Notes: generated by a model from the letters alone, not told the origin. Positions 24,856 to 44,535 are shown, counted from the stretch's first letter. The stretch is DNA of 47,591 bases from a virus (IMGVR_UViG_3300045988_142058), one strand, 5' to 3'. Numbers and translations are program-made.

Positions 24856-25121
24856 TCATCATCTCCTGCCGCACATACAACCTCACAAAAAACATCAGCG
24901 GAATGTTTCTCCTTGAACGAATGACGCTCAAAACCGCACTCAATATCAGGCGCAAAAACATCCACCACATACGGTCTTTCAGAATGTTTGTTTTCCCAAC
25001 GATAAACCGTAGTGACGTTGAAATGTTTTAACGCTTCACGGAACTCAACGCTGCCCGTCAGGTTTTTTGAGGTCAGGTATTGCAGGAGGTTTTTTACTAC
25101 TTCACGGTCTTGTACTTTCAT
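24852..25121 (-). CDS. Hypothetical protein, first gene behind cassette copy 1
   Basis: 89 aa; ATG at 25121 preceded by cassette GGAG RBS. Confidence 0.45.
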   Translation of the reverse strand: MKVQDREVVKNLLQYLTSKNLTGSVEFREALKHFNVTTVYRWENKHSERPYVVDVFAPDIECGFERHSFKEKHSADVFCEVVCAAGDDE

Positions 25122-25230
25122 CGGGTTATCTCCGGTTTAACCAGGGCGGGTATCGCTCGGTTTCGGGTATAACCATAGGAAATTTTTTCCCACCTGTAAA
25201 GCACTTTTTATATAAATCTATAATTATATA
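25122..25230 (-). promoter_or_regulatory. Promoter-leader cassette copy 1
   Basis: ~109 bp near-identical to copies at 32043..32150 and 40979..41087; putative -35 TTTACA (25195..25200), -10 TATGGT (25172..25177), leader with GGAG RBS. Confidence 0.6.
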
Positions 25231-25233
25231 ATT

Positions 25234-25821
25234 CTATGACACTTGCCAGAGAGCATCATGCAACTGGATACCTCCATTGCACTGGTTGCCCCAGCCATGC
25301 CAGCCATCAGGTAAATCACCGCGAGCAAACAGCTCAATACGAGGAACATCGCCTAACAGCTTTACCAGCTTGTCACGGACCACATCAGGCTTCCGAGAAT
25401 GCTCCAGACGAGGCGATGTAAACGACTGAATGATTCCCGCATCAAGACGTGTCGGTAGTTTGCCTTTCACTGCAAACAAGCAATCTTCACTGTTTGCACG
25501 AGTCATATGCCCCATCCCCATCACCAGCTTATCTGGTTGTCGGCTACCACATTTGTTCCATGTGAAGCCCTTCATGGTCATCAGCCTGAATCCCCATGCT
25601 TTCACCACCAGCAACGCTTCTTCTGGCTGAGTCGGAACCCACCACATGGCCAACAAACACGATTCAGGATTAGCAAGCTGCCAGACAGGAATACGAGCAA
25701 TATCCTCAGCTTTCATCGTTGGATACTTAAAACCAGCGCCACGATTCCCATCCTTACACTTGTCTTTGTATTCCCAGGGGGGATCTGCATAAATCAGATT
25801 AAACAATGCAATTGCCTCCAT
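25234..25821 (-). CDS. MT-A70 family N6-adenine DNA methyltransferase
   Basis: 195 aa; DPPW motif (LIYADPPWEY). Confidence 0.8.
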   Translation of the reverse strand: MEAIALFNLIYADPPWEYKDKCKDGNRGAGFKYPTMKAEDIARIPVWQLANPESCLLAMWWVPTQPEEALLVVKAWGFRLMTMKGFTWNKCGSRQPDKLVMGMGHMTRANSEDCLFAVKGKLPTRLDAGIIQSFTSPRLEHSRKPDVVRDKLVKLLGDVPRIELFARGDLPDGWHGWGNQCNGGIQLHDALWQVS

Positions 25822-26129
25822 GTTAGTTGTGTCTCCGGCGCTTATCTCCGGCAGTCATAACGCTGGCCAGCTCTACAGCAAACACAACGAAAAGGGCACT
25901 AACCAGACTGATTAATGCCCTTGCCTGTTGTGTGCCGGATATCGCCCGACAACGCTGTTTTGGTAACACGGCTACAGTTCCGTGCCGCTCCAGCTTTTAC
26001 CCCTTTGCGGATAACAGGCCCTGCCTGTAACTTAGCCCCACGTTCGCCCGAAATGCGCACCAGGCACGCATAAAGATGAGCACGAAGGAAGTAACTCCAC
26101 CGCGCTTATCTTTATGTGTGAGAGTGAAT

Positions 26130-26205
26130 TGGTGGCCCCTACCGGATTTGAACCGATGACCGTGCGATTATGAGTCGCCTGCTCTAACCACTGAGCTAAG
26201 GGGCC
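26130..26205 (-). tRNA. tRNA with CAU anticodon, tRNA-Ile2 (lysidine)-like, CCA encoded
   Basis: 76 nt cloverleaf GGCCCCUUAGCUCAGUGGUUAGAGCAGGCGACUCAUAAUCGC...GGUUCAAAUCCGGUAGGGGCCACCA; 7-bp acceptor stem; resembles E. coli ileX from memory; elongator Met not excluded. Confidence 0.8.
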
Positions 26206-26374
26206 ATATTTGATCTGTTTGTCTGGTGTGGCGCCGCGCACGAAAATCCCAGCCAATAAATTCAGGATTTTTGGGCGCGGCGGCATATCAGACAAACATG
26301 GTTGATGCGTGCGCTAATGAGAAAAGCGCATAGAATGTTGTAACTATATATTTATATAATTATAGAAATATATA

Positions 26375-26584
26375 TTACTTTGGACAGTTGATTTCCCATG
26401 CCCTGTTATGAGCCAGAATATCTTTCTTTGTCTGGCGGTCCATAACATCGATATCGTGATCAGTCAGGTAGATGGGCTTTACCCAATCACAGGCGGTATC
26501 AACCACCACCGGGACGCTTCCACGACTCCCGCAGCTCGCGATCAACATCGTCATCAGCCATATGGTTAACACTCTGCTGTACAT
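26375..26584 (-). CDS. Outer-membrane spanin Rz1-like lipoprotein
   Basis: 69 aa; lipobox-like LIASC; overlaps 3' end of Rz-like gene in another frame. Confidence 0.55.
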   Translation of the reverse strand: MYSRVLTIWLMTMLIASCGSRGSVPVVVDTACDWVKPIYLTDHDIDVMDRQTKKDILAHNRAWEINCPK

Positions 26585-26777
26585 TGCCCACCTCTTTTGT
26601 CACTTCTATACGCCGCTCCGCAGTGGCTTTTACGGCGGCTGCATTCTCATTAATGCGCTGCTTTTCAGCTTCATCTTCGGCCTTTTCTCGCCCCTTCATA
26701 CGACCAAAACCAAACGCGCCGAATGCAACCAATATAATTGTGCCAATAAATGACAAAACGGCCTTCAAACCAGTCAT
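26499..26777 (-). CDS. Inner-membrane spanin Rz-like
   Basis: 92 aa; N-terminal TM, charged coiled-coil; follows endolysin. Confidence 0.6.
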   Translation of the reverse strand: MTGLKAVLSFIGTIILVAFGAFGFGRMKGREKAEDEAEKQRINENAAAVKATAERRIEVTKEVGNVQQSVNHMADDDVDRELRESWKRPGGG

Positions 26778-27316
26778 ACCACCACTCGCTCTTTCATCCA
26801 GCCGTAGACAAACGACTCATTCGCCTCGCGCTTCTCCGCCAACTCCAGATAGCGTTCGCCCTGCGTACAGTTCAGCGACGTCAGCATCACCCGTTCGCCG
26901 TCTTTTCCCCGATTCCCAAGATAAGCACGCAGCGCATTAATGGTACGTGGACCGATTCGTCCGTCTGCATCCAAATCGGGATACAGCTTCCCGCGCAGGT
27001 TGAACACATTCAGCCAGCGTTGAAGCATTTTTGACGCCACTGTTGGCCCCATGTTCACCCCCGTGTCACACAGCTCTGCAGCAATATCAGAGGATAATGC
27101 GGCCACCTGATCAAAGCGTGGTCCGTACCAGTAATCAGCCTCAAGGATTTCCAGTGCCTGTTCGCGAGTTAAATCGCGCATATCGCCACGGTATCCATGA
27201 GCACGGGCAGTGTTCTGAGTAATGCCCCACTTTGTTGGGCCTCCCTTGTCGTCAGGGTGATCAACATAACCGCCCTCTTTCCCAAGAATGCTGTTAAAAA
27301 TCTCATCTTTGGTCAT
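26774..27316 (-). CDS. Endolysin, GH108-like with peptidoglycan-binding domain
   Basis: 180 aa; ILGKEGGYVDHPDDKGGPTKWGIT motif; C-terminal DGRIGPRTINAL. Confidence 0.8.
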   Translation of the reverse strand: MTKDEIFNSILGKEGGYVDHPDDKGGPTKWGITQNTARAHGYRGDMRDLTREQALEILEADYWYGPRFDQVAALSSDIAAELCDTGVNMGPTVASKMLQRWLNVFNLRGKLYPDLDADGRIGPRTINALRAYLGNRGKDGERVMLTSLNCTQGERYLELAEKREANESFVYGWMKERVVV

Positions 27317-27635
27317 GATTAAACCCTAATGCGTCAACTATCCGCGCCAGATTGCCCCTGAAATACAGAACAACGATGCAGATAATCAGATTTCCAATAA
27401 CCACCAGCCAGTGGGATTCTTGATAAAGACCGAACACATAACGGAAGGGAACATTGGCGTATACAATGACGTAGATATAAGCCAGAAAGGAAACAAATGG
27501 ACGATGCCTGGAGTCTTTCCGTCGATAAAGCATCAGCGCCATTACTATTACTGTGCAAAGCACCGCATTAATCAGTGCTGACGGGTCACTGCTTACCATT
27601 TGAACCCCCTCCACGTAAGCGGGAAAGCATTCCAA
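27303..27635 (-). CDS. Membrane protein, holin/antiholin-like
   Basis: 110 aa, multiple hydrophobic segments; start uncertain. Confidence 0.4.
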   Translation of the reverse strand: MECFPAYVEGVQMVSSDPSALINAVLCTVIVMALMLYRRKDSRHRPFVSFLAYIYVIVYANVPFRYVFGLYQESHWLVVIGNLIICIVVLYFRGNLARIVDALGFNHDQR

Positions 27636-27981
27636 AGATGCTACCGAGATCCTGGCTGTTTACGAACGTGAGGATTTTAATGGTCAATGCAGCCACAATA
27701 ACCGCACCAAGCGCATCCAGAGGACGATCGTTGTAGCTGGTCCATTTGGCAAGAAATGAGCCAACTAACGGCGCTCCAATCACTCCAACAATGAACGATG
27801 TAAAGAAATAGCCAATCAGCTTGAGACGGCTAATATTCACCGCTGTAGCAACATAGAAAACAGCGCCAGCAAATGCCCCGAATACAACGCCGTAATCAAT
27901 ACCAGTTGCAATACCAAAAACGCTGGCACCCATCAGGCCACCAGCAGCAACGGCCGTACCGGAAATTGGTTCTGCTGACAT
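27586..27981 (-). CDS. Putative holin
   Basis: 131 aa, 3-4 predicted TM segments, upstream of endolysin. Confidence 0.55.
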   Translation of the reverse strand: MSAEPISGTAVAAGGLMGASVFGIATGIDYGVVFGAFAGAVFYVATAVNISRLKLIGYFFTSFIVGVIGAPLVGSFLAKWTSYNDRPLDALGAVIVAALTIKILTFVNSQDLGSIFGMLSRLRGGGSNGKQ

Positions 27982-28171
27982 TGAAATCCTCGTTAAAAAA
28001 AAAGCCCCGCCGAAAAAGGCAGGGCTTCATAAAGCAACAAATTACGCGGTAATCGCTTAACGCAGTTTTACTACGTTAAATGAAACACTACACCCAGTTA
28101 CCACCTAAAACAAGGTTTCCCCATAAAAAAACCTTCATATCGTGGTTAATCGATCAATAAAAAAGCAATGT

Positions 28172-28363
28172 TCAACTTTTTACCAACTGAACATCCCGAC
28201 CAGGACTTCCATAATATTCGCCGATATTCCACTGCTTAAGTTGAGTAATCTTCTCCAACTTAACTCCCACAGAATCCAATTTCTGCCATGTTTTCGGTTG
28301 TATGTGCCTCATTACCCGCTCTGAATATCTAAATACTGCTCGTAGCCTCGCTAAATTGCTCAC
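28172..28363 (-). CDS. Hypothetical small protein
   Basis: 63 aa ORF. Confidence 0.3.
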   Translation of the reverse strand: MSNLARLRAVFRYSERVMRHIQPKTWQKLDSVGVKLEKITQLKQWNIGEYYGSPGRDVQLVKS

Positions 28364-29064
28364 TTGTCGCCTCCTTTACGAATCTGTTCCGCCCACTCCT
28401 CAAGAGATTTCTCCGCATATTCACCGGACAGGCCATCAATCGGGTGCGGTTCATTAGCCAACTCTTCTTTCGCTGACAAAATCATGCGTGTAACGTCGAA
28501 AACTTCACGCAAAGACTTATTGATAAATCCGTGATTGAACGCAGCAGCAAGACGGCTTGCGGTGTAGTTAATCCCCTCGTTGCGTGCCTCCGCACGTATT
28601 TCAGCCAGGAAAGCGTCGGTGGCTGACATATTTCCTGTTGCCTTCATGGCCTTCAAAATAACCAGAACGCCATCTCGCCCAACCAACTCGGAGATAATCT
28701 CAGTGTTGTCGCCAACAACATCACAGAATGCCTGAACAGCTTTACGAGCAAGTGCATTCTCCGCCGCCAGCGCCGCACGACAGGCCTCCAGTTCAGCAAT
28801 ACGCTTGTTTTGGGCTTCCCGCTCATCCAGTAGTGCCTGTACTACTTCAGGGTTGAAAGCTGCGATATAACGAGCGTTGTTCTCTGCGTTTTCCTGTCCA
28901 TCAAAGCCGGTCCATTTGATAACGTCTTCACATCGTTTATCACCGGGTGTATGCACCGCATATGTACCAGTACCCGACGAAATAAATGCGACCCATTCGC
29001 CTTGTGTTGCCTGTTTTGCTATCTCACGCAGCGCCTGATAATTAATTGCTGTGCTGTTAGTCAT
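28360..29064 (-). CDS. Hypothetical protein
   Basis: Start moved to ATG 29064 (MTNSTAINYQ...), 8-nt overlap with upstream gene; 234 aa. Confidence 0.4.
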   Translation of the reverse strand: MTNSTAINYQALREIAKQATQGEWVAFISSGTGTYAVHTPGDKRCEDVIKWTGFDGQENAENNARYIAAFNPEVVQALLDEREAQNKRIAELEACRAALAAENALARKAVQAFCDVVGDNTEIISELVGRDGVLVILKAMKATGNMSATDAFLAEIRAEARNEGINYTASRLAAAFNHGFINKSLREVFDVTRMILSAKEELANEPHPIDGLSGEYAEKSLEEWAEQIRKGGDK

Positions 29065-29398
29065 TCCAAGACTCCAGCTCTGTTTCAATTTCTTTATCGA
29101 TCTCATCGTTTGTGGCTTCTTCATCCAGATGGTCACGAGCCTCTTTACGATACTTTTCTCTATGCGCTTCATACCAGTTAGAAAACTCCGGCGACCAGCC
29201 TGTGTCCTTGCCGTCGTAGTCAAACTTGGCATTTTTCTCAGCCATGCTTTCAACCATGTTTTCAGCCGTAATAAGCCCCAATTCACGCATCCCACGCAAA
29301 AAACTCTTACGCATGTGAGGACTAACTTTCGAATCACAAATAGGCTTAAATTTGACTTCCCAACGGCGAATACAACGTGCATTAAGTGATTTGTTCAT
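29057..29398 (-). CDS. Hypothetical protein
   Basis: 113 aa ORF. Confidence 0.4.
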   Translation of the reverse strand: MNKSLNARCIRRWEVKFKPICDSKVSPHMRKSFLRGMRELGLITAENMVESMAEKNAKFDYDGKDTGWSPEFSNWYEAHREKYRKEARDHLDEEATNDEIDKEIETELESWND

Positions 29399-29400
29399 AG

Positions 29401-29997
29401 TTATGCTTCCTGAATACGCTTAAACTCAATTACCCATACCCACGGGTTAGATAGCCAGTTCTCTTGCCCGTAAATACCGCGCCAGATATCACCAAAGCCA
29501 ACGCGATAAACCGCTTCCGGCGGTGTAATCTTGTACGTCGCCGGAGATGCACCTTCCGCTTTAGCATCTGCCTCGCTCATGTCATGTAGCCGTTCCACAC
29601 GCACATCGGTTATTTCCAACAGAATACGGCTGGCCCAACGTGGCATGTGAATTGATGGGGTCCAACCCTCAGCTGGCTTGCTACTATCTGAGTAATCAGC
29701 CTTGTAATCACACAGTTCAGAAGCCAGAGAGACACCATCTTTGATTTCCTGAATGACATCGTTATCCAGCCAAAAAGCGTTGAATGTTTCACGTACCCAT
29801 ATGCGATCACCAACGTTACCGAACGGACATAAACCATGTTTCGGTGCATCCATAACATGGGTACAGACACCATTGCGTTTCTTTGTCGGTTTACTGATAA
29901 CCAGGCAGTTATCCGCCCCGACATTTTTTACAGGTCGGCGAGTCTGCGTTTTCCTTCCTTCGAGGATGGCCCGGACCATCTCATCGTTAAAAATCAT
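29401..29997 (-). CDS. ASCH-domain-like protein
   Basis: Start at MIFNDEMVRAILEGRKTQTRR; motif resembles ASCH fold. Confidence 0.4.
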   Translation of the reverse strand: MIFNDEMVRAILEGRKTQTRRPVKNVGADNCLVISKPTKKRNGVCTHVMDAPKHGLCPFGNVGDRIWVRETFNAFWLDNDVIQEIKDGVSLASELCDYKADYSDSSKPAEGWTPSIHMPRWASRILLEITDVRVERLHDMSEADAKAEGASPATYKITPPEAVYRVGFGDIWRGIYGQENWLSNPWVWVIEFKRIQEA

Positions 29998-30008
29998 GCC
30001 GCGCTCTT

Positions 30009-30257
30009 TCACTCTCCCTCCCACGTTTTCAGACTTTCACCACAAAACGGGCAAAATGAGACTCGAATAGGTGATTTAGAAAACTCACCGGAACGCAACA
30101 TCACCAAATCAGGTCCACGGGTTAAACTCTCATTCCAGATTTTGTATAGCAGTAAGCCTTTTCTTACTGAGCATTCAGCATCGTGCTCAAGAGACTTTGC
30201 CAATGCAGCACACGGCTCTATTCGATTGCCATTAATTCGACAATTTGATCCACTCAC
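30009..30257 (-). CDS. Small Cys-rich (zinc-ribbon-like) protein
   Basis: GTG start overlapping upstream stop (GTGA) with GGAGG RBS; Cys pairs NCRINGNRIEPC and CPFCG. Confidence 0.4.
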   Translation of the reverse strand: MSGSNCRINGNRIEPCAALAKSLEHDAECSVRKGLLLYKIWNESLTRGPDLVMLRSGEFSKSPIRVSFCPFCGESLKTWEGE

Positions 30258-30619
30258 TTCAACTCCTCCCGACGACGTTCCTGAAGCTCTAGCATTGCGG
30301 CTCGGAAATCCTGCCACCATTCCTCATCTGCAACGGGGGTGTTTCGCTCCAGCACCTTGTCCGCATCAGCGATCAGGTTTGCCAGACTCTTGTCTGAAAT
30401 CTTCGTTACCAAAGTCGTTGGTTGCTCAACCTGCCCGATAGGTTTTATCGTGCTCAAAAGGAGGCGACGGCGGGAAAGTGGTGCGCCACAACGACGGCCA
30501 TCTTCCTTGCGATATGTTTCTTTCGGACCAACACACCAGGTTGTCGGCGTTTCGCGTAACTTCACTTTTTTCTCACCATCAATGGTGATGATTATTCCGG
30601 TATGGGTTTTGATGCTCAT
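30254..30619 (-). CDS. Hypothetical protein
   Basis: 121 aa ORF. Confidence 0.4.
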   Translation of the reverse strand: MSIKTHTGIIITIDGEKKVKLRETPTTWCVGPKETYRKEDGRRCGAPLSRRRLLLSTIKPIGQVEQPTTLVTKISDKSLANLIADADKVLERNTPVADEEWWQDFRAAMLELQERRREELK

Positions 30620-30897
30620 GCCACAGCCCCTCTCAACGGCTTAACTTTGGCTAATAAGGTGTTAAACAACATGGAGTTAGGATTCATGCCAAATGGCAAT
30701 TCCGGTTTAGCGGAGTAGTACAGGCAACCATTTATTTTCCTGGTTGTTATCTGTCCTTCGGCAACCATGCTTCTCAGTCTGCAACGCATAGAGTTCTGCG
30801 ACACACCAATGTGCTCCGCGATTACGTCCACTTTTGAACATGGGTGATCGGTCAGGAAATTAATCACATCTTGGGGGTTAATAATTTTGCGTTTCAT
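30616..30897 (-). CDS. Putative winged-helix DNA-binding protein
   Basis: Second ATG (MKRKIINPQ) has AAGGA RBS; HTH-like VDVIAEHIGVSQNSMRCRLRSMVAEGQI. Confidence 0.4.
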   Translation of the reverse strand: MKRKIINPQDVINFLTDHPCSKVDVIAEHIGVSQNSMRCRLRSMVAEGQITTRKINGCLYYSAKPELPFGMNPNSMLFNTLLAKVKPLRGAVA

Positions 30898-30943
30898 TGT
30901 CGAGGCGTCCTTATACATTTATATAAATATATAATTCTATATA

Positions 30944-30963
30944 CGGCGGGAGACATCCCGCCG
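30944..30963 (-). terminator. Terminator-like hairpin after first gene of cassette-2 operon
   Basis: 8-bp stem CGGCGGGA/TCCCGCCG 12 nt after stop at 30975, followed by AU-rich tract. Confidence 0.4.
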
Positions 30964-30974
30964 TAGGCTTACTG

Positions 30975-32042
30975 TCAGGCTTTCAATAGCGATTCTTTCA
31001 GATATCGGGCATCAGCCAGGGCATTTGGAGTAATCTTGCGAACCCATGCATTACGGGTTGGACTCCACTTAAAGGCGCGTGATTTAAGCAGCGAACGAAT
31101 GTTTGCCTCTGGTTTGCCAGGGAAATAAAACAGGATGCGGTTATCCTCTGGATCTATCTCCATAGAAAAGTCGTCGTATTCTTCGCGCTGTGCTCCTGTT
31201 ACAGACTTGACCGATTCAAGCTCCTTAATACGGCTCTGTAGTCGTTTGATCTCGGCGTTATTGTTGCTCAGTGCGTATGAAGGGAATCCGATGCGCCCAC
31301 AGAAATCTCCGGCCAGTAACTCTTTGGCTTCGCTTTCTGTAAACCTGAGATCGATTAATGCAGAAAGCTGCTGTAATTGGTCTTTTTTGTATTTGCGAAT
31401 GGCCTTATTTGCGGCCTTCATTTTGACGTGTGACTTCATGCAGCCTTGCAGCTTACGAAGCAACTTAAATAGCGCATCAGGATCATCAGACGAAATTCCA
31501 TTACGACCAACACCTGCGGCTTTGCTCTCGTAGTGTGATGCTTTACTTTCGCATTCAACAAACGCTTTTCTGAATAACGCATCAGCTTTAGACAAACGGC
31601 GGCGATGGCCTTTCGCGCTATAATGGTCAACTAAAATCGGCTGGCCTAACGGGATCACATCCAACAGGTCATGCGCTCGCTTATGCGCTACCGCACCTTC
31701 TTTTCTGGCTTTTTCTGCACGAGCAATATATCGGGCAAGACGCGCGTTCTGGCGTTCCTGATAGGTGTTTACGTAATCATCTCCGCGCTGCTGCTGTTCA
31801 AGCCATGCTTTACGCAGATCTTCTGTTACGTCCACCAGCTCCGCAGGGATACAACCAGTTTGGGCTTCATAAGAGTAACCATCCTCATAGATACGCCCAT
31901 CGTCTTCAACAAAGAAAAAGGTTTCGTGCTCATCGCTTTTGACCATACGACCATTAACATGGCGTAATAGGTAGCCAGTATCAGTGCTTAACAGGCTGTT
32001 AGGGTTGTTGATCCAGTCAGAAATAATTACTTGTTTATTCAT
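30975..32042 (-). CDS. DUF3560-like protein, first gene behind cassette copy 2
   Basis: 355 aa; start at cassette RBS; family call from memory only. Confidence 0.4.
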   Translation of the reverse strand: MNKQVIISDWINNPNSLLSTDTGYLLRHVNGRMVKSDEHETFFFVEDDGRIYEDGYSYEAQTGCIPAELVDVTEDLRKAWLEQQQRGDDYVNTYQERQNARLARYIARAEKARKEGAVAHKRAHDLLDVIPLGQPILVDHYSAKGHRRRLSKADALFRKAFVECESKASHYESKAAGVGRNGISSDDPDALFKLLRKLQGCMKSHVKMKAANKAIRKYKKDQLQQLSALIDLRFTESEAKELLAGDFCGRIGFPSYALSNNNAEIKRLQSRIKELESVKSVTGAQREEYDDFSMEIDPEDNRILFYFPGKPEANIRSLLKSRAFKWSPTRNAWVRKITPNALADARYLKESLLKA

Positions 32043-32150
32043 CAGATTTCTCCGGTTTAACCAGGGCGGGTATCGCTCGGTTTCGGGTATAACCTTAGGA
32101 AATTTTTTCCCACCTGTAAAGCACTTTTTATATAAATCTATAATTATATA
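32043..32150 (-). promoter_or_regulatory. Promoter-leader cassette copy 2
   Basis: Differs from copy 1 at -10 (TAAGGT) and in ~8 nt next to ATG; lies between Q-like gene and lysis-containing operon. Confidence 0.6.
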
Positions 32151-32211
32151 TTTATAGATTTTCGATGTTCCCGATGTCTACACACCATCAAAACAGCTCA
32201 AAATGACACTT

Positions 32212-32589
32212 TCACTCTCTTCGCTTTTTCAAATAGTCGACAACATACGCCCTGGCTTTTGCCAGCTTCCGGCGATACTGTCTGAGACTAAGAGAAAGGG
32301 CGTGGGCTTTATCAATATGCGGTGCATTTATGTCGAGGCCCCGAATCTCCCACGCCCCGTATTCAATTCGGACAACCAGCGCCGCAGTCTCATCAACTAC
32401 CGTGAGGGCCGTCACCGCTCCCTCGATACTGGTTTCCAGTGAGTCATTTGGTGCGCCGCCCCCTCCGGTAAACTGGCAACGCGTAACCATCATCATTTCT
32501 AACATCGACGCGAAACCGCTACGGGCGTTGCAGCCATTGCGCACCCACAGCGCCCATAGCTCAAACAAGCTATCCAGATCGCGTCTCAC
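32212..32589 (-). CDS. Putative late-gene antiterminator Q-like protein
   Basis: 125 aa; last gene of Cro-side operon, immediately upstream of cassette 2 and lysis operon; N-terminal LFELWALWVRNG resembles small Q family. Confidence 0.4.
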   Translation of the reverse strand: MRRDLDSLFELWALWVRNGCNARSGFASMLEMMMVTRCQFTGGGGAPNDSLETSIEGAVTALTVVDETAALVVRIEYGAWEIRGLDINAPHIDKAHALSLSLRQYRRKLAKARAYVVDYLKKRRE

Positions 32590-32592
32590 TGT

Positions 32593-32925
32593 TCAGATCT
32601 CCCGTATCGTGACGGGATAAAGCGCCTCTACCTGCTTTTTCTTCATGATGTAGACGTCTGTTCGCACACCTTTAGTGTCGACACAATCAATCGTCCCATC
32701 GTCATAAAACACCATGAAATCAAGTTTATAAACGACACCACCAGGCAGATGAAAAGGCACCTGCATAAGAAACGTCACAACGCGGCCAGCTTTTCTCAGT
32801 AGCTTCAGTTCGCAGTAGTAATCAGCCTCTTTTTTGCTATCAAAAGCGATATCATCGACAACAGTTTTTTTATTGCCGTATTTGCTTTTCCTGGTCGCTG
32901 GTTTGCGAAAGCCGGTATATCTCAT
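32593..32925 (-). CDS. DUF1064-family protein
   Basis: 110 aa with hallmark SKYGNKKT...FDSKKEA...KLDF...DTKG pattern. Confidence 0.6.
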   Translation of the reverse strand: MRYTGFRKPATRKSKYGNKKTVVDDIAFDSKKEADYYCELKLLRKAGRVVTFLMQVPFHLPGGVVYKLDFMVFYDDGTIDCVDTKGVRTDVYIMKKKQVEALYPVTIREI

Positions 32926-33326
32926 TTGGTATCCCCTGGTACTTCACCAAGACTAAGATCAAACCCAATTTCGTCTTTAACTGACTGCGGCAACAGCTCC
33001 CACGTCTGCGCACACAAAAATTCATCGGTGCCATAACGCTCAACAAAGCGAGCACAATTACTCAGGGGAGGGTGACGAACGGCAATATGCGGAGGCACGC
33101 GCCCACCACCAGGCACAACACCGCGATGATGTGGTGCGCACAACCCAAAGCTATGGAAGTGGCAATTCTCATCAACGCTGCCGTAATCAGGATCGTGATG
33201 TAGCTCCGTCCACAGCTCTGGATTCTCAATTTCACGGCCATCAATAATGCAAGCTATGCAACCCACGTGAGTGAGCACCGCTTGTATATAAAGTTTCTCT
33301 TTCTTCGTTGGTGTACGTCCGTTCAT
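32922..33326 (-). CDS. Hypothetical Cys/His-rich protein
   Basis: 134 aa with CIACII...HHDPDYG...CHFHSFGLCAPHH. Confidence 0.35.
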   Translation of the reverse strand: MNGRTPTKKEKLYIQAVLTHVGCIACIIDGREIENPELWTELHHDPDYGSVDENCHFHSFGLCAPHHRGVVPGGGRVPPHIAVRHPPLSNCARFVERYGTDEFLCAQTWELLPQSVKDEIGFDLSLGEVPGDTK

Positions 33327-33559
33327 CAGCGCCCCTTACCATTGATAAAGAGGTTGAACTCGTTGATTAACTGGACATACATGCTTCTGGCCGCGTAGTT
33401 CTTTGCCAGCTCTTTACGGGATGAGATCCCGCAAAACTCACGCAGAATCACAGAGGCCTCAGAACTGTTTGAAACCTTCTTCCCTGTTTTACTGGTCAGA
33501 AAGCGCCAGAATTGGGGATTCTGGCAATGCATCGCAGCACCGCGAACATAACTACTCAT
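33326..33559 (-). CDS. Hypothetical protein
   Basis: 77 aa, coupled in early operon. Confidence 0.35.
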   Translation of the reverse strand: MSSYVRGAAMHCQNPQFWRFLTSKTGKKVSNSSEASVILREFCGISSRKELAKNYAARSMYVQLINEFNLFINGKGR

Positions 33560-34071
33560 TGATGGCCCCCGTCATTTCTGGTGCTTTTCACCGTGCGGCT
33601 TCTTAAAAACCTGCCATCACGAACAACAGACACTTCTCGTTTACCCAACCTCATTTCACGGCGGTAACATTCAGAAAATGCCTCGTCCGGCATCATATAA
33701 ATGCGACGCTTCGCCTCCGTATCCAGAAGGGAACGGCTTGGGGTTACATATAAGAACGACTCATCAATAGGGACAAAACCACGAGCAAGAATTGCTGGCA
33801 GAATACCAGGAAGAACGCAGAAAACAGCTCCACGATGCAGCAACATCTGGTACTCCATGACCTCCGTAATCCCCGTAACGACTGTTACGGTGTCACGTCT
33901 GTTACGGCTGGCAACCAGTCGCTGCACACCTCCAATTTTCTGCTCTACAGATAGACGTTTGCTATCGTTATCAATATGATCGATAACAAATCCTTTAATC
34001 GTTTGATCAAGGTAGTGCACCACCTGCGATTGAATCTGGTGATTATCACCAAAGAAGGCCAGAATCATCAT
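33556..34071 (-). CDS. Hypothetical protein
   Basis: 171 aa, second gene of Cro-side operon. Confidence 0.35.
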   Translation of the reverse strand: MMILAFFGDNHQIQSQVVHYLDQTIKGFVIDHIDNDSKRLSVEQKIGGVQRLVASRNRRDTVTVVTGITEVMEYQMLLHRGAVFCVLPGILPAILARGFVPIDESFLYVTPSRSLLDTEAKRRIYMMPDEAFSECYRREMRLGKREVSVVRDGRFLRSRTVKSTRNDGGHQ

Positions 34072-34562
34072 TCCTCAAGCCTCCCAAGTGCTGAACGCCG
34101 GGCGTTGCTAATCTCCTTATGAATCAGCTCGATATCGCTGGAATCTTTATTCTTAAGCTCCAGCACAGTAATCGCATCACGAACCTCTGAAACGGTTACG
34201 TGTGAGTGTTTCCAGCGAGCAATGAATCGCGGACCGCGTAGATTGCAACGCTCCGCAGGCATCCCCAGCTCAGAGAAAACCGCTTTCAGCCTTGATAAGC
34301 AGTTAACAGGGAGATTCCCTTTGATCTTGTTCTGCCGAACCGATGTGCCATCGCTACGCTGGCGCTGACGCTCGGCAAAATCTGCCGCCCATTGCTGGAC
34401 GTTAATCCGGCCTTCCGAATACGCCACCAGCAGCGTCAGGTTATCCGCACGAGGGAATCTCTCGAAGCGATACCAGGCACCAATCAGTGATGACGTAAAG
34501 CCAAACTTTCTGGCAACACCAATTTGGCCTCCATTTTCGTCAACCCACTCCTGAAAGGTCAT
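34068..34562 (-). CDS. Cro-like regulator (HTH N-terminus with ~100 aa extension)
   Basis: 164 aa; divergent from CI-like gene across operator region. Confidence 0.5.
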   Translation of the reverse strand: MTFQEWVDENGGQIGVARKFGFTSSLIGAWYRFERFPRADNLTLLVAYSEGRINVQQWAADFAERQRQRSDGTSVRQNKIKGNLPVNCLSRLKAVFSELGMPAERCNLRGPRFIARWKHSHVTVSEVRDAITVLELKNKDSSDIELIHKEISNARRSALGRLEE

Positions 34563-34581
34563 TTAACGAACTCCAGTTAAA

Positions 34582-34596
34582 ACCACGATATGTGGT
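34582..34596. promoter_or_regulatory. Operator ACCAC-gatat-GTGGT in cI/cro intergenic region
   Basis: Perfect inverted half-sites, 5-bp spacer. Confidence 0.6.
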
Positions 34597-34602
34597 ATTA
34601 AA

Positions 34603-34617
34603 ACCACATATCGTGAG
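34603..34617. promoter_or_regulatory. Degenerate operator ACCAC-atatc-GTGAG
   Basis: Adjacent to first operator; right half imperfect. Confidence 0.4.
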
Positions 34618-34684
34618 TTTTTCAATGGGCGAAACAAAAAATAACCTTCTATTTGTGGTCCACCTCTCGTCTTACCATGTGAAA

Positions 34685-34699
34685 ACCACTAAATGTGGT
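34685..34699. promoter_or_regulatory. Operator ACCAC-taaat-GTGGT near cI start
   Basis: Perfect half-sites, 38 bp upstream of cI ATG. Confidence 0.6.
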
Positions 34700-34736
34700 A
34701 ATGTATAAATAACCCACCATTCACGATTGATGAGAC

Positions 34737-35393
34737 ATGAAAAGCAACGACGAGAACATCAAGAAAGAAATAGGTCTGCGCATTCAGACTCTACGGAAAC
34801 AATCCGGCATGACTGCCGGAGATCTCCAGCAAGTCACTGGAATAGGCTTAAGCACCTTGCAGAACTATGAGGCCGGATTAAGACAACCATCTATACCTGC
34901 CATCAAGAAAATCGCGCACGCCCTGAAAGCATCAGCGCCTTATATCGCGTGCTTAACAGATAACCCGTTCCCACCCCAGAATACTAACGCTCCTGTTATT
35001 CCTGGGCTTGTAGCTATAAAAAATGACATAGCATCGCACGCCGGAGAAAAGCCAGTGCTGGCGATAGAACAGGAGATTCTACGAAGCAAGAACATCAACC
35101 CATCGTCTCTGTCAGTTCTCCAGAGCAACGATGAGTTAATGTCACCAACAATATCCCCTGGCTCCCAAGTCCTGATTAATACAGACGATACAGAGATTCA
35201 TGAGGGGATCTATGCCCTTGAAGACAGAAATGGCCTGGTTGTTTTGAGGCACTGTAGAGTCATACCGGGTGACAATGCTGTTATGCTGTCAACCGAAAGG
35301 GATGCTGAAATGAACACTAAGCATCTGAATAACGAGGAATTTAAGCGTTATAAAGTTCTGGGCCGCGTAGTTAGTGTTGTCAACTGGTTATGA
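34737..35393 (+). CDS. CI-like repressor (HTH + LexA/S24-like C-terminal domain)
   Basis: 218 aa; N-terminal HTH (LRKQSGMTAGDLQQVTGIGLSTLQNYEAG); C-terminal S24-like fold. Confidence 0.8.
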   Translation: MKSNDENIKKEIGLRIQTLRKQSGMTAGDLQQVTGIGLSTLQNYEAGLRQPSIPAIKKIAHALKASAPYIACLTDNPFPPQNTNAPVIPGLVAIKNDIASHAGEKPVLAIEQEILRSKNINPSSLSVLQSNDELMSPTISPGSQVLINTDDTEIHEGIYALEDRNGLVVLRHCRVIPGDNAVMLSTERDAEMNTKHLNNEEFKRYKVLGRVVSVVNWL

Positions 35394-35435
35394 TACACAG
35401 CACGGCGAAAGCCGTGCATTTCTACGCTCAAAAAA

Positions 35436-35450
35436 ACCACATTTTGTGGT
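35436..35450. promoter_or_regulatory. Operator-like ACCAC-atttt-GTGGT downstream of cI
   Basis: Perfect half-sites; after hairpin 35401..35416; could also act as weak terminator. Confidence 0.45.
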
Positions 35451-35485
35451 TTTGACAACATGTGAAAGTATAAAAGAGGCTACGC

Positions 35486-35860
35486 ATGGAATTACATACA
35501 GCCAATAAAAACGAAACTCTGATCACTGCTGGAATCGAAATCCAAGCGTTGAACATAGCGATTGAGTGTATGTTATGCCAAATCATTGATAATGAGAAAG
35601 ATATCGACTGGATATCATCTACCCTTCATCTTGCTTACGAGCAAAAAGCCTGCCTCAAAACAGCCTTACAATACGATGTGCCTTCTGTATCAAAGCTGTG
35701 CCAGTCATTGATGGCATATAACAGAGCTATCATTTCTGTATGCCTCATGATTCTCGATGAGAATACCCCTCTTAGCGACCGCTCAGAAGCAGCTCTAACC
35801 CTCTCACGTAAACAGCGACAGCTAGCAAATCAACTGATATCAACGATAGCTGACCTCTGA
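35486..35860 (+). CDS. Hypothetical protein downstream of repressor
   Basis: 124 aa, AAGAGG RBS; operator-like site D upstream. Confidence 0.4.
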   Translation: MELHTANKNETLITAGIEIQALNIAIECMLCQIIDNEKDIDWISSTLHLAYEQKACLKTALQYDVPSVSKLCQSLMAYNRAIISVCLMILDENTPLSDRSEAALTLSRKQRQLANQLISTIADL

Positions 35861-35864
35861 CTGC

Positions 35865-35884
35865 AAGCGGGCTAACGCCCGCTT
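35865..35884 (+). terminator. Hairpin terminator after gene 35486..35860
   Basis: 8-bp stem AAGCGGGC/GCCCGCTT, loop TAAC, then AU-rich sequence. Confidence 0.4.
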
Positions 35885-36010
35885 ATATGATTATAGTTTT
35901 ATATAATTATATAAAACGCTTTTCATCCGCCAAAAAGTTGGTTATGCTTACCTCGTTCTATAAATATAGATTTATAGAATTATATAACCAAACACATGGA
36001 GTCTCGACAA

Positions 36011-36664
36011 ATGACTATCTCTGTAGGTATTTTCAACGGAAAAGGCGGCGTAACCAAATCAACAATTGCCCGTGCTTTAGCAGTTGCTTATGCAAAGGCT
36101 GGCTGGAATGTATGCCTGATCGATATGGATGTGCTTAACGGAACGGTAACGCGTTGGGTACAACGCAGAATGGCCAACAATATCGAACCAGCAATCGCGG
36201 CGCAGCCGTGCGGCACACCATCACAAGTCCAGAAAATCATCGAATCAGAAGTATACGACCTGGTTATCGTCGATGGCGGTGCCTACGCATCTGAATCAGT
36301 ACCGAAGCTCTCTGAATTTCTGGATATGGTTATTTTGCCAACCAGATTCTCTACCGATGACCTGGAAACCACCGTTAACACAGCTCATGGCATCGTTAAA
36401 AAGGGTGTGCCAATCAAGAAAATTTGCATGGTGTTCTCAGGCGCGGCTGAAAACGAAGCCGACTACATTGAAGCCCAAGAGTACCTGGCTAATACGCCAT
36501 ACTTTGTTGTCGATAAGTACATTCCCCACAAGCCAGCTCTGAGCAAAGCTCAGGATAAGGGCTTAAGCCTCATTGAGTGCTCATACGTTGCGCCACGCAA
36601 AAAGGCAGACGACGTTATTCAGGGGATTATCAACCAGCTTGAGGCTCTGACTACTGCCGCGTAA
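36011..36664 (+). CDS. parA: ParA-like partition ATPase (small, type Ib-like)
   Basis: Deviant Walker A FNGKGGVTKST; start at second ATG with GGAG RBS. Confidence 0.8.
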   Translation: MTISVGIFNGKGGVTKSTIARALAVAYAKAGWNVCLIDMDVLNGTVTRWVQRRMANNIEPAIAAQPCGTPSQVQKIIESEVYDLVIVDGGAYASESVPKLSEFLDMVILPTRFSTDDLETTVNTAHGIVKKGVPIKKICMVFSGAAENEADYIEAQEYLANTPYFVVDKYIPHKPALSKAQDKGLSLIECSYVAPRKKADDVIQGIINQLEALTTAA

Positions 36665-36707
36665 TATATAATTATAGTTTTATAGATTTATATAAGAGGG
36701 TATACAC

Positions 36708-36956
36708 ATGGCCGCACCATCAAAACCACCAAAGAAGAACAGCAAAGGCGTACCGCCATCGATCGAACAACCGCAGGTTTTCGACCCGACTGAAACGCCA
36801 ACCAGAACCAAATCAGGTGGGGCACAAATGGCGTTTAACGTCGACCCTGAATTTAAACGTGAGTACAAAACATTCGCCAGCTCAATGGATATGTCATTGA
36901 AAGAAGTGCTGACAAAATCTTTTGAGTTACTCAAGGCTCAATACAACCAGAAGTAA
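36708..36956 (+). CDS. ParG/ParB-like small partition DNA-binding protein
   Basis: 82 aa after parA; basic N-tail, RHH-like C-terminus. Confidence 0.5.
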   Translation: MAAPSKPPKKNSKGVPPSIEQPQVFDPTETPTRTKSGGAQMAFNVDPEFKREYKTFASSMDMSLKEVLTKSFELLKAQYNQK

Positions 36957-37178: not shown

Positions 37179-37200
37179 AAAAAAGGCCCCCGAAGGGGCC
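37179..37200 (-). terminator. Intrinsic terminator for small-peptide transcript
   Basis: GGCCCC-cgaa-GGGGCC followed on minus RNA by UUUUUU; 7 nt after peptide stop. Confidence 0.6.
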
Positions 37201-37206
37201 TAATCG

Positions 37207-37329
37207 CTACTTGCTGCTAATGTTTATCGTCACATTCAGAGCGTTATCAGTAATCTTCCAACCCTCCCCATGTGGCGTAAACAAAGCTCCAGTAACAACG
37301 ATAAAAATACACATACAGTATTTTTTCAT
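37207..37329 (-). CDS. Small hydrophobic peptide (40 aa), candidate type I toxin
   Basis: MKKYCMCIFIVVTGALFTPHGEGW...; AAGGG RBS; intrinsic terminator immediately after stop; upstream leader carries 15-nt antisense target. Confidence 0.4.
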   Translation of the reverse strand: MKKYCMCIFIVVTGALFTPHGEGWKITDNALNVTINISSK

Positions 37330-37622
37330 TGTATGGCCCTTACAGGCCGTTTCACGGCATCCCCACCGACGAAAACAACGCGAGAGCAAGCACGGCTGCT
37401 TGTGCTTGCATGTACGGCAACAGGAAATCCTCCCCTAAAGTCGGTGCCCGGGTGCGAATCGGCGGGAAGGTCCACAGGTATTTTACGATTATTTTAAGAT
37501 TAGTAATAGGAAAGAAATTAAACGAAAAAAACAGTTTATTTTCACAAAATCAGTAACCTACCCACAATCTGTGAGTTTGCTGACACAACAAGAACCACAA
37601 TTTTTTGATGTATAATAGTGGA

Positions 37623-37787: not shown

Positions 37788-37900
37788 TGTCTCTGTTAAA
37801 ATCCCGCCGTATTGACATGAATGCGCCATTGGTGGACACTTTCCGAGCCGTAGCAAAATCTACGGTCGGGATTAGCCTCCTGAATAACACGATGGCGCAT

Positions 37901-37921
37901 ACCGCGTTAGCGGTTTTTTTA
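37901..37921 (+). terminator. Second intrinsic terminator in antirepressor leader
   Basis: ACCGC-gtta-GCGGT followed by TTTTTTT. Confidence 0.45.
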
Positions 37922-38082
37922 TGCGTAGAGCACTGTTACGCCCAAATTATGGTGGGTCGTACAGGGGCGGAGAAATCCGCGCCGGTTCGTCATTGTGTCC
38001 GGTAAGGCTAACCCTGTACGGCTCACCACCATTTGATTAGCCTCGAATGGCGGTGATAGTTCCATATACTGGAGATATCACA

Positions 38083-38274
38083 ATGACAAACCTACCCCAT
38101 GACTATTACGTCAACCTCGTAAAGATCCTTCTCAAGAAAGCCTCATACGCCGATAAATTCCGCCTGGCTGAAATCATCGAGCGCGAAGCTATGCGCATCG
38201 CCAGCAACGATAACGCTGTTTCTGACGCAAAAATCTCCCTCGTAACCAAAGTAGTTATGGGAGGTGCAAAATGA
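38083..38274 (+). CDS. Hypothetical small protein upstream of antirepressor
   Basis: 63 aa, GGAGA RBS, stop overlaps antirepressor ATG. Confidence 0.4.
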   Translation: MTNLPHDYYVNLVKILLKKASYADKFRLAEIIEREAMRIASNDNAVSDAKISLVTKVVMGGAK

Positions 38275-40597: not shown

Positions 40598-40978
40598 TTA
40601 CTTAACGAGGAATAAAAATGGTTTATTGTTCGGCGGTGTAATCGGGGCTGGCTCGCTTTTGCTCATGCGATCAGTGTACCAAGCCAACTCCTTGTCAAAG
40701 TAAGCCTGATTAAAATAGGCCATGAATGTAGTTTCAAATCCATAACGACCGCTAATACGCAGCATCTGATTGCCGTTCTCTGTTTCCAGATATACCTGGG
40801 CACGTTCCTGATTCTCCTTCAGCCAGGTTAAAGCCTCATCGCATGAGGACACACGATACTCATCATCGTAGCCGTCATCGATGCGGCTTGAGGAAGAACG
40901 GCAAATCACGCCAACAGAACCAGCCAGGATAGTTTGAATTTTAAGGAAAGCGTTTTTGCGGATTTTAATCATGCTCAT
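40598..40978 (-). CDS. Hypothetical protein, first gene behind cassette copy 3
   Basis: 126 aa; ATG at 40978 preceded by cassette RBS. Confidence 0.45.
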   Translation of the reverse strand: MSMIKIRKNAFLKIQTILAGSVGVICRSSSSRIDDGYDDEYRVSSCDEALTWLKENQERAQVYLETENGNQMLRISGRYGFETTFMAYFNQAYFDKELAWYTDRMSKSEPAPITPPNNKPFLFLVK

Positions 40979-41087
40979 CGGGTTATCTCCGGTTTAACCA
41001 GGGCGGGTATCGCTCGGTTTCGGGTATAACCTTAGGAAATTTTTTCCCACCTGTAAAGCACTTTTTATATAAATCTATAATTATATA
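40979..41087 (-). promoter_or_regulatory. Promoter-leader cassette copy 3
   Basis: One substitution relative to copy 1; heads operon 40598..40978 plus HTH gene. Confidence 0.6.
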
Positions 41088-41245
41088 AATAATAGTAACT
41101 GGTGTTTTTTTAGGCGAAGCATTAAACATTTTTGTTTAGCTTATTGGCAAGGTCTTGAAAAAGACATTTCAGCAATGCTATACCATTGAACATGGTATCG
41201 GCTGAATTTTGTAATTAACACATTTTAAACAATTTGAGGTGCCAA

Positions 41246-41530
41246 ATGGCTAAACAAAAATCTGAAATTGATGCTATTCGAGCATTAACAGAAGTAACAA
41301 TTAAAGGTTTTGAGCAGGTTGCTCAGGCATTAGTTGATATGAGAGAAGCTCAGGGAAAAGTCGTACGAGCAACATATAATGGATTAACCTCCTCAGGAAA
41401 ATCTCGCTATGTTGCATCGCTAGTAGAGGAAGTAGGATCACAAGCTGAAGTAAGCCGCATGTTAAATATCACACCAGGGCGCGTTAGCCAGCTTATGAAG
41501 TCCGAAAAAAACCGCAAAAATGGTAAGTAA
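41246..41530 (+). CDS. Putative small HTH DNA-binding protein
   Basis: ATG at 41246 with GAGGT RBS; C-terminal HTH-like GSQAEVSRMLNITPGRVSQLMK; ATACCAT-N5-ATGGTAT upstream. Confidence 0.45.
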   Translation: MAKQKSEIDAIRALTEVTIKGFEQVAQALVDMREAQGKVVRATYNGLTSSGKSRYVASLVEEVGSQAEVSRMLNITPGRVSQLMKSEKNRKNGK

Positions 41531-42454: not shown

Positions 42455-42745
42455 CTATTTTTGTGACTTTACTCCTGGCATATGGACTTCCCAGCGACGA
42501 ATCCCCATAGCTGCGCAAAAATCAGCCACATAATTCAATCCCGCCCATTCGCGGATACCACCACGGGCTTTTTCAATGAAAACGGCAATCCCTTTTTTAT
42601 TGAGAGCAAAAAGCCGCCAGCTTTTTGTCACTTCGTCCTGGGTAGCCACAACACAAGTGAAAGCTCCCATGCGATACAGGTCCAAGAACTCTTTGCGTGT
42701 TTTGCGTACAAGTTCCATAACAAACCTCATATTTGCATGTTTCAA
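42455..42745 (-). CDS. Hypothetical protein
   Basis: 96 aa ORF between origin region and higBA. Confidence 0.35.
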   Translation of the reverse strand: MKHANMRFVMELVRKTRKEFLDLYRMGAFTCVVATQDEVTKSWRLFALNKKGIAVFIEKARGGIREWAGLNYVADFCAAMGIRRWEVHMPGVKSQK

Positions 42746-43041
42746 ACATCTGTTTTGTTATCAATGAAGATTAACCCTAACCCAGCGAAGTAACACAGCA
42801 GCGCCCAGGCTGCATACGGAATGCTGGATCTGGATGTGGACTCCTTTAACATCTGCCAGTTGCGAACATTGCGACTATCTTTTAAGCCTAGTTTTTTGGC
42901 CAACTGCGAGCCGCTCATTCCGGTCAGGCCAATGACTGCCCGAACTTCTCCACATGTAGGAGATTCCCATTCATCCGCTTTTTTTAAACAAGCCGGATTC
43001 AACATTTTTAAAACAGTATCTTTATCCATAACCATCTCCAT
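42742..43041 (-). CDS. Putative HTH DNA-binding protein
   Basis: HTH-like GLTGMSGSQLAKKLGLKDSRNVRNW; hydrophobic C-terminus. Confidence 0.4.
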   Translation of the reverse strand: MEMVMDKDTVLKMLNPACLKKADEWESPTCGEVRAVIGLTGMSGSQLAKKLGLKDSRNVRNWQMLKESTSRSSIPYAAWALLCYFAGLGLIFIDNKTDV

Positions 43042-44523: not shown

Positions 44524-44535
44524 ATGTTCGCTCTT

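Follow-up and report, generated by a model that had tools for sequence, protein, structure and literature searches.

Four-unit arrays of an AT-rich 8-bp box as probable sites of a ribbon-helix-helix partition protein in a phage-plasmid

In the prophage N15 (SopB, with dispersed sopC-like centromeres) and RK2 (KorB, with 12 OB sites), the sites of the partition system are dispersed near promoters. Both are type Ia systems, with large helix-turn-helix (HTH) ParB proteins and single inverted repeats of 16 or 13 bp. On TP228, a multiresistance plasmid of E. coli, degenerate ACTC tetramers make up an operator, OF, of 8 boxes and a centromere, parH, of 12 boxes; the boxes are set apart at regular intervals by 4-bp AT-rich spacers and stand in direct or inverted orientation, and ParG binds them cooperatively, one dimer per box, while its tails contact ParF (PMC3130281). 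The ribbon-helix-helix (RHH) ParB protein of pSM19035, omega, binds contiguous heptads that overlap several promoters, and at least four contiguous repeats are needed for a stable ParA-ParB complex and for activation of the ATPase (PMC9499535). Omega is reported to be able either to help or to block RNA polymerase (PMC4627068). Here we describe eight AT-rich arrays in a viral sequence of 47,591 nucleotides, IMGVR_UViG_3300045988_142058 (the window, that is, the whole stretch of DNA analysed), which flank a gene pair encoding a small ParA and an 82-aa protein and recur at remote places in the same element.

The anatomy and statistics of these arrays, their conservation among relatives and their co-variation with the lineage of the RHH protein make it highly probable that all eight are binding sites of the RHH partition protein encoded next to parA, serving as operator, as centromere and probably as a wider regulon. 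ParA and the 82-aa protein probably form a type Ib partition pair built like ParF and ParG of TP228. As there, a small ParA is followed by a protein of ~76-82 aa whose N-terminal tail is flexible and whose C-terminal part is an RHH domain (predicted, in the window protein), 4-bp boxes and 4-bp AT-rich spacers give an 8-bp period with boxes in direct or inverted orientation, and upstream of the operon stand arrays that are divided between operator and centromere (PMC3130281). The two systems differ in the core, ACTC in TP228 and ATAT or ATAG here, so that the whole site is A/T here, and in distribution, with 8 + 12 boxes in one place in TP228 as against eight four-box arrays over 16 kb. They also differ in protein sequence: the window protein has no significant match to the ParG family proper (no match to Pfam ParG, PF09274; family profile against TP228 ParG, 1P94, in register at a non-significant E of 0.84).

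With the delta/omega system of pSM19035, the window would share an RHH protein on contiguous short repeats, the same sites being centromere and operator at several promoters. That system uses 7-bp heptads in sets of 7-10 at three maintenance-gene promoters, whereas here 8-bp units stand in fours at eight places, including phage-module genes and a tRNA; host phylum (Firmicutes) and sequence family are also different. N15 and RK2 resemble the window in that a partition-protein site is scattered over the replicon near promoters, linking segregation with gene control, but they do so with type Ia HTH proteins rather than with a type Ib RHH protein and tandem tetramer boxes. New here is a probable type Ib system in which the core consists of A/T only and the sites are spread over a phage-plasmid, and our literature search found no paper describing the partition system of the 82-aa family. 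Phage-plasmids are common in enterobacteria, and the coordination of plasmid maintenance with phage functions has been little studied; the findings suggest partition-coupled control of phage-plasmid genes.

An 8-bp unit repeated in fours

The window holds exactly eight arrays, each of four tandem 8-bp units (32 bp; Table 1). The unit consists of TT, a core of ATAT, ATAG or CTAT, and AA or AT, which equals a tetramer box with a 4-bp A/T spacer in either orientation, CTAT being the inverse of ATAG. Over the 32 units, the central four bases are ATAT in 17 cases, ATAG in 7, CTAT in 6 and something else in 2, and variants of the unit beside TTATATAA include TTATAGAT, ATCTATAA and TTCTATAA. Scored with a position matrix of the 32 units, the eight arrays reached 27-42 bits, as against 7 bits for the best place elsewhere in the window. 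Since the sites themselves had served to train this matrix, it was supplemented by three other tests. The first was a motif-free detector, in which each base is compared with the base 8 nt later and matches are counted over 24 positions. It returned 7 clusters in the window, every one of them an array, whereas lags of 5-7 and 9-12 gave 0 or 1 cluster and third-order Markov simulations averaged 0.125. Second, the pattern TATA-N4-TATA-N4-TATA, with at most one mismatch, was matched 24 times against an expectation of 0.14. Third, when the matrix was built from the three par-locus arrays only, the five remote arrays ranked next (35-39 bits, with array 8 at 22 bits), and the first place that was not an array scored 8.8 bits. 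The sites have the architecture of ParG-type sites: 4-bp cores, a regular 8-bp period, direct and inverted orientation, and contiguous arrays. Iterons, DnaA boxes and pac or cos sites were considered and dropped on account of the length of the unit, of its dispersal in eight copies and of the IncFII type of the replicon.

The original prediction, made from the sequence of the window, had centred on a 10-bp palindrome, TATAATTATA, in three cassettes, before a tRNA gene and on either side of parA. Six exact copies were located at these places (25219, 26355, 32139, 35902, 36667 and 41076), the last of which falls outside the range proposed for the family, 25211-36696. Dinucleotide shuffles of the whole window led to an expectation of 0.08 copies. 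Shuffling each intergenic segment in place, a procedure that kept the arrays in the composition, gave a mean of 0.044 and a maximum of 1 in 1000 shuffles, so the palindrome is far more frequent than in composition-matched controls. The near-copies reported at about 30911 and 35958 are present, the sequence ATTATAGTTTTATA is common to the parA-flanking sites (at 35890 and 36671), and the confinement to intergenic DNA was borne out, all eight arrays being non-coding. The palindrome itself, however, is not the unit but the joint of two adjoining units, TTATATAA followed by TTATATAA, and its one-mismatch copies sit 8 or 16 bp from exact ones. Nor are the copies independent: those at 25219, 32139 and 41076 are the distal end of a single 114-nt direct repeat, so that the number of independent occurrences is ~4.

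By context, three arrays flank the pair of parA and the 82-aa gene, three lie in the copies of a thrice-repeated cassette, and two stand just before a gene or a tRNA. Two geometries recur. In the first, 5-8 nt separate the end of the array from a -35 hexamer downstream of it, as at the parA promoter (array 5, 5 nt) and, on the minus strand, in the three cassettes (remote arrays, 7 nt). In the second, seen in arrays 3, 6 and 7, the array lies directly before the ribosome-binding site. At the par locus, tandem short repeats thus stand beside the operon and overlap its promoter, as in type Ib systems (arrays 5, 6 and 7), and the order of terminator, array, promoter, array and Shine-Dalgarno sequence (SD) is kept in eight relatives. 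The layout of the parA promoter is repeated in Serratia relatives, as TTTACA-17-TAAGCT in L007 and TTTACA-17-TAATCT in L008. The five remote arrays place copies of the par-locus site at the promoters of other operons, the arrangement expected of a plasmid-wide regulator. Array 3, read on the minus strand, is directly 3' of a terminator hairpin (30943-30964) and directly 5' of GGACGCCTCGACAATG, the start region of a MarR/FaeA-like gene with its likely start ATG at 30897. Array 2 lies between the stop of the open reading frame (ORF) 26375-26584(-) and tRNA-Met 26130-26205(-); the ~140 nt from this array down to the tRNA contain no clear promoter.

A conserved SD-CTCGACAA-ATG context sets the starts of parA (36011) and of the MarR-like gene (30897); the mechanical ORF starts, in the regions 30895-30918 and 35996-36013, are probably too far upstream.

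Arrays that end 5-8 nt upstream of a -35 hexamer, as four do, occupy the place of UP elements. Most units are also 100% A/T, and window-type units contain TATAAT, some of them paired with -35-like hexamers in a promoter scan. These features would suit arrays that were protein-independent promoter DNA (UP elements or TATAAT -10 boxes) or sites of a host nucleoid protein with a preference for AT-rich, TpA-rich DNA, such as H-NS, Fis or IHF, an explanation that we consider quite unlikely. A strict 8-bp register, a fixed number of four units and near-palindromic units are foreign to UP elements and H-NS sites, and clusters appeared only at lag 8. Several arrays are also placed where a promoter would not be expected: between parA and the RHH gene, past a terminator and up against an SD, and, in a relative described below, within a type IV secretion system (T4SS) operon. 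Moreover, the core varies by lineage (ATAT, AAAG, CTTT, AGCG, GTAC) at constant geometry, and some cores contain G/C and have no resemblance to a -10 box. Among these enterobacterial hosts, the nucleoid proteins are near-identical, which also weighs against this explanation. The original prediction had offered a dispersed operator, a centromere-like site or a promoter element; the operator and centromere readings were supported, and a plain promoter (-10 box) ranks last among these options because Serratia-type arrays (TTAAATAA, TTAAAGAT) keep the geometry without TATAAT.

Table 1. Coordinates of the arrays and associated features in the window.
Feature	Position	Strand	Description
Array 1	25208..25239		In cassette 1; units TTATATAA ATCTATAA TTATATAA TTCTATGA
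Array 2	26344..26375		Units CTATATAT TTATATAA TTATAGAA ATATATAT
Array 3	30911..30942		Units TTATACAT TTATATAA ATATATAA TTCTATAT
Array 4	32128..32159		In cassette 2; upstream of DUF3560/primase-like gene 30975-32042(-)
Array 5	35883..35914		Upstream at the par locus; begins at the base of the hairpin that terminates the preceding gene
Putative parA promoter	35920..35948	+	TTTTCA-17-TATGCT; predicted by consensus match
Array 6	35956..35987		Operator-type; starts 7 nt downstream of the -10; within the parA leader, preceding GGAGTCTCGACAAATG
Array 7	36664..36695		Fills the spacer from parA to the 82-aa gene, whose SD (GAGG) follows directly
Array 8	41065..41096		In cassette 3; three good units and a degenerate fourth; upstream of 126-aa gene 40598-40978(-)
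parA	36011..36664	+	217 aa; small Walker-type partition ATPase; open frame begins at 35996
82-aa ParG-like protein	36708..36956	+	Basic disordered N-terminal tail, then predicted RHH
Cassette 1	25118..25239	-	Array, TTTACA-17-TATGGT with inner dyad TGGGAAAAAATTTCCTA, ~48-nt leader, ATG of 89-aa gene
Cassette 2	32038..32159	-	Same array-promoter-leader module; -10 TAAGGT
Cassette 3	40975..41096	-	Same array-promoter-leader module
cI-like repressor	34737-35393		HTH_3 and a weak, below-cutoff Peptidase_S24 match
IncFII-type RepA	43675-44685		

The gene pair beside the arrays and its relatives

The ParA of the window is a Walker-type protein in the range of ~200-220 aa without an N-terminal HTH domain, as in type Ib systems. 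It matches Pfam CbiA/ParA/MipZ, aligns with positions 2-200 of 203 of NCBIfam ParA_partition at 78.6 bits, below the 180-bit cut-off, and weakly matches the solved ParF structure 4dzz (E 3e-4). The 82-aa gene begins 44 nt past parA. Its product falls in a PHROGs family of unknown function and is labelled hypothetical in every database record seen. A word-indexed protein search reached close relatives only (at least 79% identical), and the wider family needed an exhaustive phmmer search, which found 62 relatives, mostly of 74-90 aa, among 1.8 billion representatives. In the family alignment, a basic N-terminal tail with a conserved K-G-x-P-P is followed by a beta-strand and two helices (pattern LNFkV..EF.rEFK.FA...d.SM.ELL..sFE.YK); the predicted RHH parts of the window protein are the strand AQMAFNV and helices 47-59 and 64-80. 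Among 56 family members, 19 match Pfam RHH_10, 12 match Antitox_RHH and 1 matches ParG at E 0.018.

An AlphaFold2 model from a shallow alignment was poor (predicted local distance difference test score, pLDDT, of 65) and was replaced by one from a 56-sequence alignment, in which residues 40-80 have a pLDDT >90 and form an extended segment and the same two helices. Nearly all Foldseek matches of this model in the PDB were RHH proteins (CdbA, StnY, AmrZ, CopG, Arc, ParD), with a target template modelling (TM) score of 0.65-0.87 and a root-mean-square deviation of 1-2 Å over ~42 residues; the E-values were poor, as expected for such a small domain. As a predicted monomer, the product of the small gene right after parA is an RHH protein with a disordered N-terminal tail. 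We conclude that the 82-aa family is probably a previously unannotated family of RHH partition proteins. The designation ParG-like in the original prediction applies to the modelled architecture of the window protein and not to membership in the ParG sequence family.

Of 5426 complete E. coli genomes, 71 carry the par region, and 71 of its 72 places are plasmid-borne, which supports the assignment to partition. In a Salmonella Weltevreden plasmid, eight arrays stand at orthologous positions, and a contig with a 79%-identical RHH protein has kept the three par-locus arrays while the DNA between and around them has diverged. The module cI - orf - parA - RHH gene recurs in two phage-plasmids of Serratia and in a third from another assembly, with RHH proteins 40-50% identical to that of the window. 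The two Serratia plasmids also carry the Rha gene, and the virion modules of these Serratia-type relatives partly differ, one having a lambda-like siphovirus tail. Their arrays have the same period, the same four units and the same places at parA, with 3-5 further remote promoter regions, and are built of TTAAATAA, TTATTTAA and TTAAAGAT, with cores AAAG, AAAT and CTTT. Joint change of par-locus and dispersed arrays was judged where whole replicons could be scanned: at individual remote arrays, the par-locus matrix of the same genome outscored a foreign matrix by ~4-15 bits, indicating that par-locus and remote sites changed together.

Other ParA/RHH loci keep the grammar with the cores CTTT, AGCG/CGCT, GTAC and TACA/TGTA. 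Their units are TTCTTTAA; TTAGCGAT/TTCGCTAA; (T/A)(T/A)GTAC(A/T)(A/T), which forms two four-unit arrays flanking the RHH gene; and the TACA/TGTA type. The connection that had been drawn between the sites and the ParG-like protein is therefore strengthened, in that tetramer boxes spaced by 8 bp flank the ParA/RHH pair, recur with it in relatives and have a core that follows the RHH lineage.

The cassettes are homogenised within genomes, at 95-99% identity compared with 86-90% between E. coli and Salmonella, and three of the remote arrays lie in them; array 3 shares its downstream CTCGACAATG context with parA. Such copying would be expected if the remote arrays were functionless passengers, carried by recombination with two repeated promoter/leader modules, and only the par-locus arrays mattered. 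We regard this as very unlikely. The distal array unit of the cassette lies outside the homogenised repeat, yet it is a good unit in two of the three copies, and the tRNA-proximal array belongs to neither repeated module. Furthermore, Salmonella has retained remote arrays at orthologous places, those of Serratia carry the core of their own lineage, and those of a conjugative plasmid stand in quite different contexts.

This plasmid, NZ_CP037908.1 (L013), is a 28.5-kb, cfr-carrying replicon with a MOBC relaxase and an MPF_T mating-pair system. It shares with the window only ParA (45% aa identity), a 77-aa RHH homologue and a 1.4-kb higBA segment (tblastx). It has TATA-type arrays at four places of its own: one directly ahead of parA, one between parA and the RHH gene, one directly ahead of the start codon of virB10 and one in a further intergenic gap within the T4SS cluster. 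L007 and L008, with 6-8 arrays, lack higBA and have hicAB and pemIK instead. Because L007 and L008 lack higBA and NZ_CP037908.1 shares little else with the window, the ParA/RHH pair is the only component common to every array-bearing replicon examined.

This distribution bears on the possibility that the arrays are operators of another element-encoded regulator, parA being merely one member of its regulon. As candidates we considered the 124-aa protein, whose gene lies just upstream of parA and is always beside it in the phage-plasmids; the MarR/FaeA-like protein, whose gene directly follows array 3; and HigA and the 98-aa HTH-like ORF 41234-41530, the latter with weak HTH-type Pfam matches, since higBA and this ORF are common to the window and the array-bearing conjugative plasmid. 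Such a regulator is nevertheless improbable because the conjugative plasmid, without the 124-aa and MarR-like genes, still has four arrays of its own, and because arrays of this design, with other cores, are also present on short contigs that hold nothing but parA and the RHH gene. L007 and L008 likewise have their arrays without higBA, and tandem 8-bp boxes in fours are a known design of RHH partition proteins, not of HTH dimers.

The two arrays in the T4SS cluster of NZ_CP037908.1 are at 11984-12015 and 13759-13790, and one directly abuts the virB10 start region, which suggests that partition-protein control of transfer genes is possible too. In pTP33 of Y. pestis (L009, 15171-15285) and in Erwinia tracheiphila (L010, 16170-16285), regions upstream of a ParA and a 75-aa RHH homologue contain (A/T)TCAC-type boxes at irregular spacing, reminiscent of omega heptads. 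Owing to this irregular spacing, pTP33 and the Erwinia phage-plasmids were not used as evidence.

Proposed roles of the arrays

By analogy with TP228 ParG and pSM19035 omega, we infer binding, its cooperativity, centromere activity and the sign of regulation as follows. One RHH dimer would bind each core, with its beta-ribbon in the major groove, and four dimers would cooperatively coat the 32 bp of an array, while the basic N-terminal tails would contact ParA and stimulate its ATPase. Array 6, just after the -10, may be the autoregulatory operator at which parA transcription is repressed. Array 5 is a candidate centromere-type site; arrays 5 and 7, and possibly all eight, would be centromere-type sites on which partition complexes load. 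Since at least four contiguous repeats are needed in pSM19035 (PMC9499535) and four is the usual length here, a single array could amount to a minimal functional site. Additional sites for partition complexes would be provided by the five remote arrays, which would also modulate the adjacent promoter or gene start. Their abutting a -35 hexamer or a ribosome-binding site suggests that the genes behind them are under the control of the partition protein, and together they may make up a small plasmid-wide regulon.

A wider proposal, which we put forward tentatively and hold to be somewhat doubtful, is that the RHH protein is a genome-wide regulator. Each four-box array would then be a minimal centromere plus operator, the 4-bp core would be re-specified in each lineage with all sites of the replicon following, and segregation would be coupled to phage gene expression. 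Under such an arrangement, the concentration of partition protein, and hence the copy state of the plasmid, would set the output of the regulated units, namely the thrice-repeated cassette, the MarR-like or Lar-like gene and the tRNA/methyltransferase unit.

Several points weigh against assigning the arrays to the RHH protein. Taken alone, the 82-aa protein had no match in single-sequence searches of Pfam, NCBIfam or PDB, it has no significant sequence similarity to ParG or omega, and its assignment to the RHH fold comes from a predicted monomer model together with weak family-level matches. In the literature we found no binding, stability or expression data for the family. L008 has no array in the parA/RHH spacer, which indicates that this position is dispensable. 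The co-variation compares lineages that differ in many genes, and in the phage-plasmids alone another lineage-specific DNA-binding protein could read the arrays; only NZ_CP037908.1 separates the RHH protein from other proteins, and it also shares the HTH protein HigA and the 98-aa ORF. The relation between beta-strand residues and cores is not simple either, AQMAFNV and AQLNLYV both occurring with ATAT/ATAG and AQMKFAV with GTAC. Finally, the arrays are AT-rich and placed where UP elements lie, so that part of their effect, at the four -35-proximal arrays, could be protein-independent.

The data define a grammar of sites (8-bp units, four per array, a lineage-specific 4-bp core) that offers a simple route from sequence to the centromeres and regulons of such elements. 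The cores, re-set lineage by lineage, amount to a natural experiment in specificity change. If the remote arrays are functional, they would be a type Ib counterpart of the dispersed centromeres of N15 and of global control in the style of omega and KorB.

The phage-plasmid and its other features

Because bases 1-62 of the window recur at 47530-47591, it represents a closed circle of ~47.5 kb. In addition to the cI-like repressor and the IncFII-type RepA (Table 1), it encodes the small ParA, an ORF6N/Rha-type protein, a Gp49/HTH toxin-antitoxin pair and lysis genes, and it belongs to a family of phage-plasmids. Its virion module is myovirus-type, and that of its relatives is tail-sheath-type. 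Its closest named relatives are the Yersinia phages vB_YpM_39/41/44; also close are ~60 plasmids in the region of 48 kb, found in Escherichia, Salmonella and Klebsiella, among them a plasmid of the E. coli reference strain ATCC 25922. A literature search on these Yersinia phages and on the ATCC 25922 plasmid found nothing relevant, and HQ103 was dropped as a lead, being an unrelated 32-kb phage.

The thrice-repeated cassette includes the 114-nt direct repeat (25118-25231, 32038-32151 and 40975-41088) and has the order array, TTTACA-17-TA(A/T)GGT and a ~48-nt leader, which is identical among the copies up to the ATG. Behind the cassettes lie the 89-aa gene, the DUF3560/primase-like gene and the 126-aa gene. 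Between -35 and -10, each copy contains a second operator-like inverted repeat, T(G/A)GGA-N7-TCCTA (25176-25192, 32096-32112 and 41033-41049). A fourth, perfect copy of this dyad, TAGGAAAAGATTTCCTA, is found at 43060-43076 in a promoter that has this geometry (TTGCCA-17-TACCAT) but no array, before ORF 42742-43041(-). The dyad also occurs in the Serratia cassettes and, unlike the arrays, is not lineage-specific. The leaders (minus strand, 25121-25171, 32041-32091 and 40978-41028) are conserved in Serratia as well. In the RNAalifold prediction, they form a hairpin, in which two pairs are compensatory (AACC/GGTT in E. coli, GGCC/GGCC in Serratia), and a small stem containing the SD; such a leader structure is weakly indicated, by a single evolutionary switch.

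ACCAC-N5-GTGGT dyads at 34583-34616 and 34655-34700, between the cI-like repressor gene and a divergent leftward operon, have no relation to the AT-rich arrays and are probably operators of cI. Rfam matches at gathering score were obtained for ryfA, isrK and C4 antisense RNA, at 37179-37475 (-), 37847-37920 (+) and 37945-38033 (+), a short way upstream of the ORF6N/Rha-type gene (38271-39452). The region looks like an antisense control of an antirepressor of the P1/P7 immI type.

The 930-aa ORF 5870-8662(-) is probably a tape-measure protein. Within it, the 38 nt at 7286-7323 have 71% identity to the -35 region of the cassette plus ~1.5 array units; with only these ~1.5 units and 3.7 bits, the stretch was not counted as a further array, and the similarity is probably due to chance or to a decayed copy. 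The same ORF contains three 45-nt repeats at a spacing of exactly 120 nt (6321-6605), which look like an internal repeat of the protein.

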